A stretch of 64,000 nt of DNA, taken from NCBI GenBank assembly GCA_015231405.1, contig JADGBR010000007.1:40791-104790 (forward strand). The letters are read 5' to 3'. The translations under genes and the position numbers were made by a program. The stretch is from Candidatus Omnitrophota bacterium. GTDB lineage: Bacteria > Omnitrophota > Gorgyraeia > Tantalellales > Tantalellaceae. Below, in pieces: positions 54,354-59,278 of the stretch (position 1 is its first letter; every line of letters begins with the position of its first letter). The notes beneath the pieces are model-generated. The model had not been told where the DNA came from. It was given only the letters and a program-made list of their open reading frames with translations, and ran no database searches.

Positions 54354-55817
54354 ATGGCAAAATCAAAAAGTGTGTTGGGGGTGGGCAGAGTAATGCCTGA
54401 GCTACCTAAAGTTATGACCGGCATTCAGGGGTTAGATGAGATAACATTCGGAGGACTGCCAAAGGGGCGACCTACCCTTGTGTGCGGAGGCCCCGGTTGC
54501 GGCAAGACGCTCTTGGCTATGGAGTTTCTTTGCAGGGGCGCTCTGCAATATAACGAACCCGGCGTCTTTATTGCCTTCGAAGAGAAAGAGAAAGATCTGG
54601 AGGAAAATTTCGCCTCGCTCGGTTTCGATTTAAAATCGCTTGTAAAGCACAAAAAACTCGTTATCGATTATGTCTACATCGAAAGAAGCGAGATCGAAGA
54701 GACGGGCGAATATGATCTTGAAGGACTCTTCGTCCGTTTAGCGGCCGCCATTGATTCGATCGGCGCAAAAAGAGTAGTTCTCGATACCATCGAGGCCCTA
54801 TTTTCAGGGTTTTCAAATGAATCGATCCTGCGCGCGGAATTAAGGCGGCTATTCCGCTGGCTTAAAGATAAGGGAGTCACGGCAGTAATTACCGGCGAAA
54901 AAGGCGAGTCACTTCTAACAAAGCATGGATTGGAAGAGTATGTCGCGGATTGCGTCATACTCCTCGATCACCGCACGGTTAATCAGATTGCAACGAGACG
55001 TCTTAAGATAATAAAGTATCGCGGTTCAAAACACGGAACCAACGAATTCCCGTTCCTTATAGGCGAAACCGGTATCTCTGTTTTTCCCATGACGAGCTTA
55101 CTTTTATCAAGCACTGTGAGCTCTCGGCGTATATCATCCGGCATAAAGAGCCTCGATGAGATGTTGGGCAATAAAGGCTATTACAGGGGGAGCACTATCC
55201 TTGTATCCGGATCAGCAGGAAGCGGGAAGACCAGCTTTGGCGCCAAGTTTGTGGACGCCGTATGTGAGACTGGCGAACGCGCGTTATATCTCGCTTTTGA
55301 GGAGCCTGAAGACCAGCTATCCAGAAATATGAAGAGCATAGGTATCGATCTTAAGAAGTGGATAGATAAAGGGCTATTGAAGATCAATGCTAACAGGGCA
55401 ACCCTGTGCGGCCTTGAGATGCATCTTGTCATGGCGCATAACGCAGTAAGAGATTTTAAGCCGTCGGTCGTTGTCATAGATCCGATCACGACACTGATAG
55501 GCGCAGGGATGGCGGATGAGGCAAAAGCGATGATGGCCAGGCTTCTCGATTATCTTAGGAACGAAGGCATCACCGTTTTGGCGACAGACCTCTCGCTTGG
55601 CAGTACTCATGGGGATAGCGCGGAAATAGGCATATCATCTCTTTGTGACACGTGGATAAGGCTATCCATGGAAACTCAAGGATACAGGAGGATGCGCAGA
55701 CTTAGTATCATAAAATCAAGAGGCATGAAACATGCCCATGATACAAAAGATTTTATGATAACCGACAACGGGCTCGAGATGAAAGATATTCCCGGCCGAA
55801 AGGAGGACTTAAGATGA
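54354..55817 (+). CDS. kaiC: KaiC-like double RecA-domain ATPase
   Basis: [16 protein letters not shown], two Walker A motifs ([16 protein letters not shown]), 487 aa; strong RBS AAAAGGAGA. Confidence 0.85.
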
Positions 55818-56098
55818 AGAAGGCCGCTTATAGACTTAAATTATATGTAGCTGGGACAACGCCTAAATCATTAGAGGCTTTCGCTAATCTTAAAAAGATA
55901 TGCGAGGAGTATCTTAAGGGGCAATATTCTATCGAAGTAATAGATCTTATCAAAAACCCCAAGCTTGCCAAAGGCGACCAGATAATCGCGATACCGACAC
56001 TTGTAAGACACTTGCCCGAACCGATAAAGAAGATCATAGGCGATCTTTCCAACAAAGAGAAGGTTCTTGTGGGATTAAATATTATAAATAAAGGATAA
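55814..56098 (+). CDS. kaiB: KaiB, copy 1
   Basis: [25 protein letters not shown]...[25 protein letters not shown]; 94 aa. Confidence 0.85.
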
Positions 56099-56100
56099 AA

Positions 56101-56433: not shown

Positions 56434-56439
56434 TAATAA

Positions 56440-58926
56440 ATGAAGGATCGCAATAATCTTGCTAATGAAAACAAGGAACTAAAGGCGCGCTTAGCCGAGG
56501 CCGAAGAACTGTTGGCCGCGATTAAATCAGGCGGCGTCGATGCGTTCGTGACCGATGATCAGCAGGTCTTTACTCTCAAAAGCGTTGATCATGCCTACAG
56601 GGTGCTTGTCGAGACGATGAATGAAGGGGCGGCGACTCTTGCGTTTGATGGCACATTGCTCTACTGCAATATACGCCTCGCCGAGTTTTGCGGACTTCCG
56701 ATAGAAAAGATCGTCGGCGCCTCTATCCTTGATTTCGTAGTCCCGGATGAGGTTAAAAAGCTAAAATCTCTTCTAACTCAAAGTAAAAATCAAACTACCA
56801 GCACTGAATTGCAGTTCAAAAGAAATGGTAAAAACCCAATACCTACCCTTGTCTCATGCAATCCATTAGAAGCGGAAATTAAAGGTCTCTGCATGGTTAT
56901 AACGGACCTGACAGAGCAAAAAAATACCGAGCGAGAGCTAAAGAAACACCGCGACCATCTTGAAGAACTGATTAAAGAGCGTACAGGCAAGCTTGCGGAG
57001 ACCGAAGCGCGCTTCAGGGCGCTGACCGAGACTTCCCCGCTTGCCGTGGGGGTGGGCTCCTATGATGGGAAGGTCCTCTATATCAACAAAGCATATGAGA
57101 GGTTGTTCGGCTACACGATCGGGGAACTTACCGAAGTCAACTCGTCTCGACTCTGGGTGGACCCGAAGGACAGGCAGAAAATGATAGAGGCCGTCAAGGC
57201 AAAAGGTGTCCTTATCGATTATGAAACCCAGCTTAAGCGTAAGGATGGAACGCTTCTATGGGCCAGCATAACGGTCAACCAAATCCATTTCGCGGGTAGT
57301 CAGGCGGTAATGGCCACTGTCTATGATATTGCCGAACGCAAGCTGGCCAAAGAGGATCTGATGAAGATGCGCGATATCCTGTCAGATTCCCAAAAGATTG
57401 CACACCTGGGCAGCTTTGAATATGTCCTCGCAACTAGGACTACTATCTGGTCGGAGGAAGAATACCGTATTTACGGACTTGACCCCGCGGGACCGTCTCC
57501 CGAATATGATGTAATACTCAAGAAATGTATCTATCCCGACGATGCGGCCCTGCTGCATGAAACCTTCACAAAGGCTATGCAAAACCGCTCCACCTACGAA
57601 CTTGAACACCGGATCGTCAGGCCTGACGGCAGCGTGCGGTGGGTATATGATCGCGCGCATCCTTATTTTGACGAAAAGGGCAACCTTTTGCGGTATGGCG
57701 GCGCGACTCTCGATATCACCGAGCGCAAGCGGGCGGAAGATGCGCTGAGGGAAAATCAGATTCTTCTCGCTACGCTGCTGACCAAAGCCCCGATCGGTTT
57801 CGCGTACTTTGATAAGGATCTGCGTTTCGTCATTATCAATGAAAAGCTCGCGGCGATCAATGGGTTGACCGTTGCCGAGCACATCGGTAAACGCGTCCAT
57901 GAGATCGTACCTGCATTGGCTACTGCTGTGGAGGAGATTGTTACACGGATTCGAGAGACGGGCCAGCCGGTAGAAAACCATGAGTTTAGCGGTGAGACCG
58001 CACTCATGTCCGGGGTGATGCGGTATTGGACTGAGAGCTGGTATCCCGTTAGAGACGACGTAGGCGCAATCGTCGGTTTCGGAACGATTGTCGAAGAGAT
58101 CACCGCGCGCAAGAAGGCCGAAGAGGTTCTTAGGCGCGACAAGGAGACTTTGGAAGGGCTTGTTCGGGAAAGATCAGAACAGCTTGTTGAAGCTCAAATG
58201 GAATTGGATCGGGCAAGCCGTCTCTCCGATATAGGCGTGCTTGCCGCGACGGTTGCCCATGAACTACGTAACCCCTTAGCGGTAATTGATGTGACGGCCC
58301 ATAATATTAAAAGAAAATTAAATAATCCGGATATCGATAAGCACGTGCAACGGATTCATGTTAAGGTTGCTGAAAGTGATCAGATCATCAATAATCTGCT
58401 TTTCTATTCACGTTTAAAACAACCCCACTTAGAAAATGTTAATATTTTTGATATAGCCCGAGGTTGTGTTGAAGATTTAAAGGTTCAAATAAAGAAGGAC
58501 GTAACGGTTAATGAAATTTTGGATCCTATCAAAGGCATTCTGATCGACGCGGATCCTCTGCAGATAAAGGAAGTCTTAGCAAATTTATTAAATAATGCGT
58601 ATGATGCCGTTCCATCCGAAAAGGGCAAGATTTCGATTATAGCTGAGAATAATGATGATTTTGTTGAAGTGACAATAGAAGATAATGGATGCGGGATCGG
58701 CAAAGATATTATTGATAAAATATTTGACCCATTTGTTACTAACAAGGCAAAAGGCACGGGATTGGGATTGTCTGTCAGTAGGCAGATAATCAATATGCAT
58801 GAAGGTGAGATCGGGGTAAAGAGTGAGCTGGGGCAAGGGACATCTATTATCTTGCGTCTGCCTAAGAAAGAAAGAAAGAAAGAAAGAAAGAAAGAAAGAA
58901 AGAAAGAAAGAATAAATGGCTATTAA
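56440..58926 (+). CDS. Multi-PAS sensor histidine kinase
   Basis: Several PAS-like blocks; HisKA H-box AHELRNPLAVI; HATPase DNGCGIGKD...GTGLGLSV; C-terminal (KKER)n tail. Confidence 0.85.
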   Translation: MKDRNNLANENKELKARLAEAEELLAAIKSGGVDAFVTDDQQVFTLKSVDHAYRVLVETMNEGAATLAFDGTLLYCNIRLAEFCGLPIEKIVGASILDFVVPDEVKKLKSLLTQSKNQTTSTELQFKRNGKNPIPTLVSCNPLEAEIKGLCMVITDLTEQKNTERELKKHRDHLEELIKERTGKLAETEARFRALTETSPLAVGVGSYDGKVLYINKAYERLFGYTIGELTEVNSSRLWVDPKDRQKMIEAVKAKGVLIDYETQLKRKDGTLLWASITVNQIHFAGSQAVMATVYDIAERKLAKEDLMKMRDILSDSQKIAHLGSFEYVLATRTTIWSEEEYRIYGLDPAGPSPEYDVILKKCIYPDDAALLHETFTKAMQNRSTYELEHRIVRPDGSVRWVYDRAHPYFDEKGNLLRYGGATLDITERKRAEDALRENQILLATLLTKAPIGFAYFDKDLRFVIINEKLAAINGLTVAEHIGKRVHEIVPALATAVEEIVTRIRETGQPVENHEFSGETALMSGVMRYWTESWYPVRDDVGAIVGFGTIVEEITARKKAEEVLRRDKETLEGLVRERSEQLVEAQMELDRASRLSDIGVLAATVAHELRNPLAVIDVTAHNIKRKLNNPDIDKHVQRIHVKVAESDQIINNLLFYSRLKQPHLENVNIFDIARGCVEDLKVQIKKDVTVNEILDPIKGILIDADPLQIKEVLANLLNNAYDAVPSEKGKISIIAENNDDFVEVTIEDNGCGIGKDIIDKIFDPFVTNKAKGTGLGLSVSRQIINMHEGEIGVKSELGQGTSIILRLPKKERKKERKKERKKERINGY
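58865..58910. repeat. Tetranucleotide microsatellite (GAAA)11 at the 3' end of the kinase gene, 5 bp before the response-regulator start codon
   Basis: AAAG AAAG ... counted 11 units directly in the sequence; encodes KKERKKER. Confidence 0.9.
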
Positions 58927-59278
58927 ACGAATTTTGATTATTGAAGATGATATCCATCTCGCCGATTCGCTTTCCGAGCTTTTAGAGGATGAAGGCTACT
59001 TTGTGGAGTGCGCCAAGGACGCAGTTAAGGGAGAGATCCTTATAAGAAAGGGCAACTTCGACGTCATTCTGCTGGATTACAAAATGCCCTTACTTAGCGG
59101 CATAGACATACTCAAAAAGCTTAAAGCCGATAATATAAGAAAACGTATTTTTATTGTCTCAGGAAGACCTTCTACGGAGCGATCTCTCAAAGAAGAAGAT
59201 GTTTTTGATATGATCAGCGGCATAATCGTAAAACCCATTAATATTGAAGCTTTTCTTGAGAAAATAAAAAATGCATAA
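58916..59278 (+). CDS. Stand-alone receiver-domain response regulator (CheY-like)
   Basis: ILIIEDD ... DVILLDYKMP ... phosphoacceptor pattern; 120 aa; overlaps the kinase stop by 11 bp. Confidence 0.85.
   Translation: MAIKRILIIEDDIHLADSLSELLEDEGYFVECAKDAVKGEILIRKGNFDVILLDYKMPLLSGIDILKKLKADNIRKRIFIVSGRPSTERSLKEEDVFDMISGIIVKPINIEAFLEKIKNA

Follow-up and report, generated by a model that had tools for sequence, protein, structure and literature searches.

A putative KaiA-independent KaiBC signalling operon with two types of KaiB in an Omnitrophota bacterium

A kai operon was analysed in a 64-kb stretch of DNA from a Candidatus Omnitrophota bacterium (contig JADGBR010000007.1; the whole stretch of 64,000 nucleotides is called the window below). 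By analogy with characterized relatives, the locus is probably a KaiA-independent, KaiC2-type KaiBC phospho-signalling module on horizontally acquired DNA. The open reading frame (ORF) list of the window, from which all ORF positions are taken, contains five consecutive genes on the + strand: kaiC (54354..55817; 487 aa; KaiC2/KaiC_RS type by Pfam, NCBIfam, and PDB matches), kaiB-I (55814..56098; 94 aa; the canonical type, orthologous to the KaiB of Rhodobacter sphaeroides), kaiB-II (56101..56433; 110 aa; a type-II paralogue with a conserved N-terminal extension, residues 1-23), a soluble four-PAS histidine kinase (56440..58926; 828 aa), and a single-domain, receiver-only response regulator (58916..59278; 120 aa; PF00072, 63.5 bits). 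The ORF list, Pfam, and NCBIfam thus reproduce the coordinates and domain calls of the initial annotation. The start of kaiB-I overlaps the kaiC stop by 4 nt (ATGA), and the receiver ORF, from its ATG, overlaps the end of the kinase ORF by 11 nt, stop codon included. The other intergenic gaps in the operon are 2-6 nt. Shine-Dalgarno-like sequences precede kaiC (AGGAG at 54343-47), kaiB-I, kaiB-II, and the kinase gene. The transcription unit is limited by two + strand intrinsic-terminator-like hairpins: an upstream hairpin with a T-run (53817..53860; 15-bp stem, 7 GC pairs), which closes the preceding PDC-M05A/B (MNT/HEPN-like) unit, and a downstream hairpin with a T-rich tail (59790..59828; 17-bp stem, 7 GC pairs). 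No KaiA domain was found in the 57 window ORFs scanned with Pfam; the initial annotation had likewise noted no kaiA.

Relatives were sampled with one genome per species, as the 80 loci nearest to the window KaiC, which contain 81 kaiC genes; the ORFs of these loci are maximal ORFs. The nearest loci belong to Omnitrophota and Lentisphaerae metagenome-assembled genomes (MAGs), with 82-83% KaiC identity. Compared with two loci, L001 (the nearest relative) and L002, the ratio of nonsynonymous to synonymous substitution rates (dN/dS) is 0.03-0.13 for kaiC, kaiB-I, the kaiB-II core, and the N-terminal kinase module N-PAS1 described below; these values are approximate, with dS near saturation. The kaiC, two kaiB, PAS kinase, and receiver genes form one tight transcription unit under purifying selection.

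KaiC matches PF06745 (378 bits) across two stretches, corresponding to two KaiC/RecA domains. It scores 659.7 bits with NF006799 (cutoff 408), and 324 bits with the cyanobacterial-type TIGR02655, below the cutoff of 546. The top PDB matches are the R. sphaeroides KaiC (KaiC_RS) entries 8db3, 8dba, and 8fwi (E ~1e-160), whereas cyanobacterial KaiCs match at ~1e-87. The KaiC of Synechococcus elongatus, 100% identical to 1u9i_A across residues 1-519, was used as the numbering ruler, and shares 35% identity with the window KaiC. The Walker A motifs (CI 45-52, CII 286-293) and the catalytic EE pairs (CI 76-77, CII 316-317) are conserved; the Walker B aspartates and Arg fingers are also kept in this alignment. 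The CII alignment to S. elongatus KaiC, which the initial annotation had named as a check, finds the phosphosites present: S428/S429 (GISSLCDTW) align to S431/T432 of S. elongatus and to S413/S414 of KaiC_RS. All 59 scorable KaiC relatives contain this SS phosphosite. A Ser-Ser pair in place of the Ser-Thr of KaiC1/KaiC3 is a mark of the KaiC2 subgroup (PMC5520375; PMC10076222). The window KaiC is a double-domain KaiC2 of the R. sphaeroides type, with catalytic motifs and Ser-Ser phosphosite intact. The faults that would have spoken against the initial annotation are absent, since the Glu pairs and phosphosites are intact and both KaiBs match KaiB hidden Markov models (HMMs). The dN/dS of kaiC against L001/L002 is 0.04-0.09.

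The C-terminus of this KaiC lies 27 aa past the last conserved K.RG..H motif. A tail of ~110-130 aa, with a GPxGVLTGSAR motif and a coiled coil, is present in 62 of the 81 related KaiCs. The nine short-tailed KaiCs are scattered in the sample, including Omnitrophota, Lentisphaerae, Elusimicrobia, Burkholderiales, Phycisphaerae, Chloroflexia, Chitinophagaceae, and Victivallales. The window KaiC has neither an equivalent of the S. elongatus A-loop/tail (488-519) nor the coiled coil of KaiC_RS, and it ends before the engineered KaiC_RS-Δcoil cut at E490. The C-terminal extension of the KaiC_RS type (at least about 50 aa, with a coiled coil and dodecamer) is thus missing, and the tail-less KaiC is expected to be a hexamer rather than a dodecamer. 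Literature searches on KaiC487/A-loop truncations gave nothing relevant, and no paper on naturally tail-less KaiC2 proteins was found.

Both KaiBs match PF07689 well above its gathering cutoff of 27 (96.3 bits for KaiB-I and 79.5 bits for KaiB-II), and they share 52% identity. Each has a 100%-identical NCBI entry from a Candidatus Omnitrophica MAG (P0001 and P0121). With NF006798 (cutoff 110), KaiB-I scores 111.3 bits and KaiB-II 90.8 bits; this split parallels the RefSeq names 'KaiB' and 'KaiB family protein'. The best PDB match of each is the R. sphaeroides KaiB (KaiB_RS), which for KaiB-I is 8fwj_M. The initial annotation regarded the tandem kaiB arrangement as an unusual duplication. Neither part of this view is supported. 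In the sample, two kaiB genes follow 61 of the 81 kaiC genes, one follows 16, three follow 1, and none follows 3 (mostly contig ends), so that two kaiB genes are the rule. This count holds for the loci nearest to the window KaiC and not for all KaiC2; the alphaproteobacterial single-kaiB operons (52-55% identity) lie outside the sample. The tier with 58-64% KaiC identity includes bacteria (Geobacterales, Bacteroidota, Verrucomicrobiota, Planctomycetota, Acidobacteriota, and Gammaproteobacteria) and archaea (Methanoperedens, Methanothrix, Methanosarcinaceae, and Bathyarchaeota).

A neighbour-joining tree of the KaiBs was reconstructed from an 85-column core, without bootstrap support. In this tree, 62 of the 64 second-position KaiBs form one clade, named type II; the single first-position sequence inside the clade is an ORF-calling artefact. 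The first-position KaiBs (type I) cluster with the R. sphaeroides and Thermosynechococcus elongatus KaiB references. Type I is strongly conserved, and type II retains the KaiB core residues with the signature residues T13, L40, Y46, K65, R73, and M78 (KaiB-I numbering). HMMs built for the two types assign the R. sphaeroides KaiB to type I, and the KaiBs of a conjugative Pararhizobium plasmid to type I followed by type II. The dN/dS is 0.03-0.11 for kaiB-I, 0.08 for the kaiB-II core, and 0.28-0.53 for the short kaiB-II extension. The two KaiBs are ancient, position-conserved paralogues, rather than a recent local duplication. No paper was found in literature searches on tandem or two kaiB genes outside cyanobacteria, on the type-I/type-II pair, or on the type-II extension. 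Two related loci contain other arrangements. In a deltaproteobacterial MAG (L042, 5285-10000), kaiC-kaiB-kaiB and kaiC-kaiB form two operons back to back, and a Desulfomonilaceae contig (L008, 320-3166) has three kaiB-like ORFs 3' of kaiC.

The basic 20-aa extension of KaiB-II noted in the initial annotation is real as judged by three observations. The same 110-aa protein is called by NCBI (P0001, 100% identity); an AAGGA Shine-Dalgarno-like sequence lies 5 nt 5' of the ATG at 56101, and none lies 5' of Met21; and 92 database homologues of 108-118 aa have an extension of ~23 aa with the pattern MAKsKs.I.KQLE..lKK.kpKKY, averaging 8.7 K+R versus 2.0 D+E. In gene-called proteins, a median of 25 residues precedes the β1 core motif in type II, and 7 in type I. 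The extension length is conserved at ~18-23 aa in the type-II copies. Basic charge was considered as its defining trait and rejected, being lineage-specific (net -6 to +10 across type II). The wider traits of type II are the extension length and an [FL][ED]x[AST][LM] motif, which occurs 5-20 residues before β1 in 19 of 59 type-II and 0 of 62 type-I sequences (Fisher p = 2e-7). AlphaFold2 (AF2) places a helix at KaiB-II residues 6-17 with low confidence.

The AF2 model of KaiB-I, built from a type-I alignment, has the ground-state topology, with a mean predicted local distance difference test (pLDDT) score of just 63. Foldseek aligns ~90 columns of this model to ground-state KaiB crystals (2qke/4kso; TM 0.75-0.80), whereas fold-switched KaiBs (8fwj_M, 5jwq_B, and 8ubh) match only its N-terminal ~54 columns. 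The model resembles ground-state KaiB and is consistent with a fold-switcher. For KaiB-II, modelled from a type-II alignment, the β1-α1-β2 half has a pLDDT of 68-82, against less than 50 in the half where metamorphic KaiBs refold. A different balance of fold states in type II would fit this model, which does not prove it.

The kinase contains four PAS domains, HisKA (His607), and HATPase_c (705-810), and nothing else by Pfam/NCBIfam; in these scans it had no PF07689, GAF, or pseudo-receiver domain and no NF006800 match. Its conservation in the nearest loci covers residues 1-223 only. A homologue of residues 1-185 (56440..56994 on the + strand), comprising an N-cap and PAS1 and named N-PAS1 here, begins the protein right after the last kaiB in 66 of 71 loci, with a median of 100 bits. 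The other kinase PAS domains score ~13-20 bits against the same start region. Two known sensors also start with N-PAS1: the Pararhizobium sensor matches at 93.5 bits, and the HWE kinase of R. sphaeroides at 44 bits (residues 6-162). The kaiC-kaiB-kaiB-NPAS1 order recurs in dozens of phyla. The architecture 3' of N-PAS1 varies, including stand-alone proteins of ~235 aa, minimal kinases of 405 aa (L001), hybrid kinase-receivers, and multi-PAS proteins of 1,000-1,400 aa. Since N-PAS1 recurs and the parts downstream vary, the conserved core is kaiC, kaiB-I, kaiB-II, and N-PAS1 fused to variable outputs. In the Bacteroidales loci L059, L060, L062, L067, L073, L077, and L078 (at about 10.4-11.2 kb of each locus), N-PAS1 is a stand-alone ~235-aa protein after kaiB-II, and the kinase genes are separate or absent. 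The stand-alone form in Bacteroidales argues for N-PAS1 as a putative discrete functional unit. No paper on N-PAS1 as a conserved Kai partner was found in literature searches. In its sequence, the receiver has D11/D12 (acidic pocket), D54 (acceptor), S82, and K106.

The closest characterized system is the R. sphaeroides (Cereibacter) KaiBC (PDB 8DBA, 8DB3, 8FWI, and 8FWJ; PMC10076222), encoded as kaiC-kaiB-HWE kinase on plasmid pRSKD131A. Both systems have Ser-Ser phosphosites, intact catalytic motifs, orthologous KaiBs (KaiB-I and KaiB_RS), an N-cap+PAS1 sensor start, and no KaiA. However, the window has a type-II KaiB between kaiB and the kinase, while pRSKD131A has one kaiB. The window KaiC is without the ~90-110-aa C-terminal extension and coiled coil, and has Ala at the T426 equivalent. 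The window kinase is of the HisKA rather than the HWE type, has three extra PAS domains, and is followed by a receiver gene. The proto-circadian timer of Rhodopseudomonas palustris (PMC4794148) shares the kaiC-kaiB-PAS/histidine kinase (HK) operon, a TSS/SS-type phosphosite region, the absence of KaiA, and a non-cyanobacterial host. Unlike the window, it has only one kaiB, its KaiC is longer at the C-terminus, and its host is a phototroph with a demonstrated light/dark fitness phenotype; nothing comparable is known in Omnitrophota. The window thus shows the gene order and homologous kinase N-terminus of the purple-bacterial operons, with two kaiB genes in place of their single one.

The likeness to the S. 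elongatus KaiABC system consists of a double-domain KaiC, a member of the fold-switching KaiB family, and, as presumed output, a histidine kinase with a response regulator; the window is without KaiA, the A-loop, and the KaiA-binding tail, and has SS in place of ST. The initial annotation compared the kinase to SasA and CikA. This comparison holds as a functional analogy only. SasA has a KaiB-like N-terminal (thioredoxin-fold) domain, and CikA has GAF and pseudo-receiver domains, whereas the window kinase has none of these, and its conserved part is N-PAS1. The extra KaiBs of cyanobacteria (KaiB2/KaiB3 of Synechocystis, and KaiB-TV4 of Thermosynechococcus vestitus, PDB 8UBH, which is locked in the fold-switched state) are a precedent for a genome with several KaiB paralogues of differing fold-state preference and partner. 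However, they pair with their own KaiC or stand alone, whereas here and in about 60 species loci the two types lie behind one kaiC; the type-II N-terminal extension has also not been described for them. The conjugative plasmid p3 of Pararhizobium qamdonense (RefSeq) encodes kaiC, kaiB, a 'KaiB family protein', and a sensor, with the same order, KaiB types, and N-PAS1. There, the KaiC is long-tailed (566 aa), the type-II KaiB is annotated without an extension, and the sensor is a hybrid kinase-receiver. The kaiC-B-PAS/HK operon and the RefSeq name "KaiB family protein" for the second gene are already known. Literature searches on Kai in Omnitrophica gave nothing relevant.

The R. sphaeroides system suggests a mechanism by analogy. 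KaiC_RS needs no KaiA for autophosphorylation, since its A-loop is exposed (PMC10076222). Its coiled coil is dispensable for phosphorylation and nucleotide exchange, but required for fast autodephosphorylation and stability; KaiC_RS-Δcoil keeps kinase activity and nucleotide exchange, with scant autodephosphorylation (PMC10076222). KaiB binds the post-hydrolysis CI state, and the ATP/ADP ratio resets the KaiC_RS system (PMC10076222). By this analogy, hexamers of the window KaiC might autophosphorylate S428/S429 without KaiA, because no A-loop sits in an inhibitory buried position, the A-loop being absent altogether. Deletion of the A-loop in S. elongatus reportedly leads to constitutive phosphorylation, as Kim et al. 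are said to have found in PNAS in 2008. Fold-switched KaiB-I would then bind the post-hydrolysis CI ring, and drive the return to the unphosphorylated state as ATP/ADP drops. The N-PAS1 kinase may read, or gate, the Kai state and phosphorylate the receiver. Constitutive phosphorylation and, without the help of a partner, slow resetting would be expected of a KaiC that has no tail. Since the coiled-coil tail that speeds KaiC_RS autodephosphorylation is missing, a slow-resetting, energy-state-dependent switch or interval timer might be expected, rather than a clean day/night hourglass. The hourglass proposed in the initial annotation was drawn from one relative and is doubtful for a tail-less KaiC, while the KaiA-less KaiBC module itself stands.

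As a guess, KaiB-II is most likely a second CI-ring ligand or adaptor, and it could adjust the binding of KaiB-I or connect the ring with the N-PAS1 kinase. Tail loss is not what KaiB-II specifically makes up for, since it also accompanies most long-tailed KaiCs. A broader proposal is unlikely to hold: that most KaiC2 operons in Bacteria and Archaea are not the two-protein KaiBC hourglass of purple bacteria but consist of four parts, KaiC, a canonical fold-switching KaiB, a second KaiB with one more helix at its N-terminus, and a dedicated PAS module. In this proposal, KaiB-II would be a fold-biased co-occupant of the CI ring that couples the nucleotide/phosphorylation state of KaiC to N-PAS1, like the KaiB-like domain of SasA or KaiA sequestration, and would also serve reset in tail-less KaiCs. 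The mechanistic knowledge of non-cyanobacterial Kai timers comes entirely from single-KaiB systems (R. sphaeroides, R. palustris, and Legionella). Members of the two-KaiB majority in the 80 nearest loci come from Bacteroidota, Geobacterales, Verrucomicrobiota, Omnitrophota, and archaea of the methanogen or Methanoperedens type. Should KaiB-II prove to have a role of its own, the "primordial hourglass" model is short of one component. By itself, the locus is an ordinary member of a widespread, unstudied architecture. Two engineered perturbations occur in it naturally, the loss of the KaiC A-loop/coiled coil and a T426A-like substitution, and what resets a tail-less KaiC is directly testable with four small soluble proteins.

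The 3' end of the operon differs from its core. An ORF at 59271..59522 (+ strand) overlaps the receiver stop with its start (ATGCATAA) and is thereby translationally coupled to the receiver. Its first ~37 aa are MHKRILLVDTDVSVCDSVATLLRLEGYCVDEITSGEA, the N-terminus of a second receiver; the remainder, fused in frame, corresponds to DUF4160 profile positions 24-65, the C-terminal two-thirds (Pfam/NCBIfam profile matches). It is followed by a DUF2442 gene (59479..59739, + strand; PF10387, 51 bits), the partner in a DUF4160/DUF2442 toxin-antitoxin (TA)-like pair and the last gene before the terminator. Rearrangement with this pair has truncated a second response regulator here. In L001, a receiver-LuxR/GerE regulator lies 3' of the kinase. 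The 37-aa remnant was compared with this NarL/LuxR-type regulator as its possible source; the 42% identity over 26 aa is no better than with unrelated receivers, no more of the remnant was found downstream, and the candidate was rejected.

A perfect microsatellite, (AAGA)x12.2 (58864..58912, + strand), encodes the kinase tail KKERKKER... and ends 3 nt before the receiver ATG. It is the sole such simple sequence repeat (SSR) in the window, and none was found in 1.04 Mb of related loci. Simulated slippage of (AAGA)n changes the kinase tail and the position of its stop relative to the receiver ATG, and nothing else. With 9-15 units, every frame stops within 22 nt of the receiver ATG, with a stop/start overlap of 0, 11, or 22 nt. 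An ON/OFF phase-variable switch was rejected, as the kinase is then 823-833 aa with an intact catalytic core in all frames.

The genomic setting was described in the initial annotation as a horizontally acquired island, which is partly supported. A tRNA-Asn(GTT) gene (46866..46941, + strand; ARAGORN and Rfam) is a candidate left boundary of a low-GC defence/TA region, and the GC content falls from ~0.53 to 0.42 exactly at this gene. The window contains housekeeping genes at 0-20 kb (ThyX, PEPCK, PurC, Sua5, and IspD), a glycan-biosynthesis cluster at 20-37 kb, and SNF2/SWIM, DJ-1, DinB, and an AbiEii-like gene at 38-46 kb. Between the tRNA and the kai operon are an AbiO/Nhi/SLFN-like helicase with an S24 peptidase domain, a TIR-like protein, and the PDC-M05A/B pair. 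DUF4160/DUF2442, AbiEi with a Fic/SoFic-like protein, and an EF-hand protein lie 3' of the operon. The flanking genes match the PADLOC models PDC-M05A/B, AbiEi/Fic, TIR-like effector, and AbiO/Nhi-like helicase, which agrees with the earlier statement that TA and defence genes adjoin the operon. None of the nearest kai loci has these flanks; in L001, the neighbours are a metal P-type ATPase, an Na/H exchanger, and a glycosidase. About 50 nt past the tRNA, at about 46992-47015, part of the tRNA-Asn 3' end recurs in inverted orientation (GGCTCCGAGGGTAGGACTCGAA), which may be the scar of a past integration or excision. The scanned ORFs contain no integrase domain, and within 46.6-64 kb the tRNA end is not directly repeated over 16 nt or more, although the far end may lie beyond the window. 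Of the features of a tRNA-associated island, the tRNA boundary, GC shift, and accessory genes are present, while the integrase and direct repeat are not. Because no integrase or att repeat was found, there is no more than partial support for the term island; the surroundings have the look of horizontally acquired DNA, and mobility is plausible. KaiC2 genes occur on 104 plasmids, among them the R. sphaeroides plasmids with the studied KaiC_RS, and 42 of the 104 are predicted to be conjugative. This independently supports mobility of the family and makes the previously suggested transferable cassette plausible. No phage with a relative of the window KaiC was found. Kai modules travel with accessory DNA, which bears on the reading of kai genes in MAGs of non-phototrophs.

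Several points weigh against a KaiA-independent KaiBC phospho-signalling module. The T426 equivalent is A423 in the window KaiC; among the relatives (n=59) it is Thr in 42 and Ser in 12, and Ala occurs solely here and in L001. T426 matters for dephosphorylation in S. elongatus. Omnitrophota are not known to be phototrophs. The AF2 confidence is low for both KaiBs (pLDDT 63 and 56), and below 50 in the switching half of KaiB-II. The operon 3' end is rearranged, and part of the original output may be lost. No biochemistry on any two-KaiB system or naturally tail-less KaiC2 was found in the literature. KaiC_RS-Δcoil with bound KaiB_RS undergoes disassembly and aggregation (PMC10076222), so the tail-less KaiC may behave otherwise than proposed. 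A second explanation is a stress or energy switch without timing, in which the tail-less KaiC would be in a constitutive state of hyperphosphorylation and serve as a static sensor of ATP/ADP or stress, as has been proposed for Legionella KaiBC, with the KaiBs and the PAS kinase tuning a stress response. KaiC_RS-Δcoil phosphorylates and hardly dephosphorylates, and the window KaiC ends even earlier; the Ala at the T426 position and the host, from a non-phototrophic candidate phylum, point in the same direction, as do the KaiC2 homologues of Legionella, which are tied to stress response and not to rhythms (PMC5520375; bioRxiv 10.1101/2022.01.26.477890). However, the relatives with identical KaiB pairs are mostly long-tailed (62/81), so the ancestral function of the module was probably that of KaiC_RS-type systems, and the strong constraint on KaiB-I (dN/dS 0.03-0.11) implies that KaiB-binding cycling still matters. 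A switch without timing is considered possible, though rather improbable.

Two further explanations are much less credible. KaiC, KaiB-I, and KaiB-II might form a self-sustained oscillator, a true non-cyanobacterial clock with KaiB-II in a KaiA-like or SasA-like role. KaiB-II is indeed an ancient, conserved, position-fixed third component with an N-terminal extension that type I does not have, and the SasA N-terminus and other KaiB-fold domains of cyanobacteria act as competitors or partners at the same CI site. Yet there is no sign of KaiA-like activity, KaiB-II keeps the KaiB core residues, the A-loop targeted by KaiA is absent from KaiC, and the R. sphaeroides and R. palustris systems, which are without KaiB-II, are only hourglasses; such a clock is therefore very unlikely. 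It is equally hard to believe that the locus is a cassette in decay or without function, or part of a defence island with no relation to Kai signalling, as guilt by association with its TA and abortive-infection neighbours would have it. The truncated second receiver fused to DUF4160, the microsatellite inside the kinase 3' end, the PADLOC matches of the flanking genes, and a weak mad8 match of KaiC itself (61 bits) are what such a cassette might show. However, the five core ORFs are intact with their catalytic residues and under strong purifying selection, SSR slippage never truncates the catalytic core, and the operon of the nearest relative, L001, does not lie among defence genes.

Some other elements were found around the operon. 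A repeat array 5' of kaiC (53930..54271, + strand) contains three ~92-nt units, each a hairpin AAATCCGGGTA-N13-TACCCGGATTT followed by TTGACTATAAACAGCTTGCAGAAAGTGTCTGCCTGGGGTA. It includes 5-6 copies of a 19-nt core, AGTGTCTGC(0-2 nt)GGGG, with 6 matches versus 0 expected, and a ACCCGGATTT hairpin element adjoins the core. Elsewhere in the window, the core occurs only at 49924 and 50056 (49898-50069, before the TIR-like gene unit), and it is absent from all 80 related kai loci. A conserved Kai regulatory element was rejected on these grounds, the motif being found otherwise only in another intergenic spot of the same island. Rfam matched the tRNA alone, and a sigma-70 scan gave weak matches only, three of them on the opposite strand within the repeats. 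A promoter/operator array, an element like a miniature inverted-repeat transposable element, and an assembly artefact are the candidates for this repeat family. A 57-nt terminator-like palindrome (GGGAGC...CCCTACAGACATTTAGTCTGTAGGGG+T-run) is present in two copies, 81% identical, at 51923-51979 and 53802-53858. The two copies close successive gene units of the island, which suggests a reused terminator module.

Three observations concern other genes of the window. An 805-aa SLFN-group-3/AbiO/Nhi-like helicase with a C-terminal S24 (LexA-like) peptidase domain (47370-49787) precedes a protein of 388 aa (50336-51502) that matches a TIR effector weakly in PADLOC; the two could be a putative uncharacterised defence pair. 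Small ParB-HTH proteins are encoded 0.5-3 kb 5' of kaiC in the window (51433-51954) and in L001 (4092-4559 and 6166-6822), with 35% identity, which could be coincidence or a loosely linked regulator. A 1,399-aa ORF at 36-4235 has no Pfam match at E <= 1e-5.

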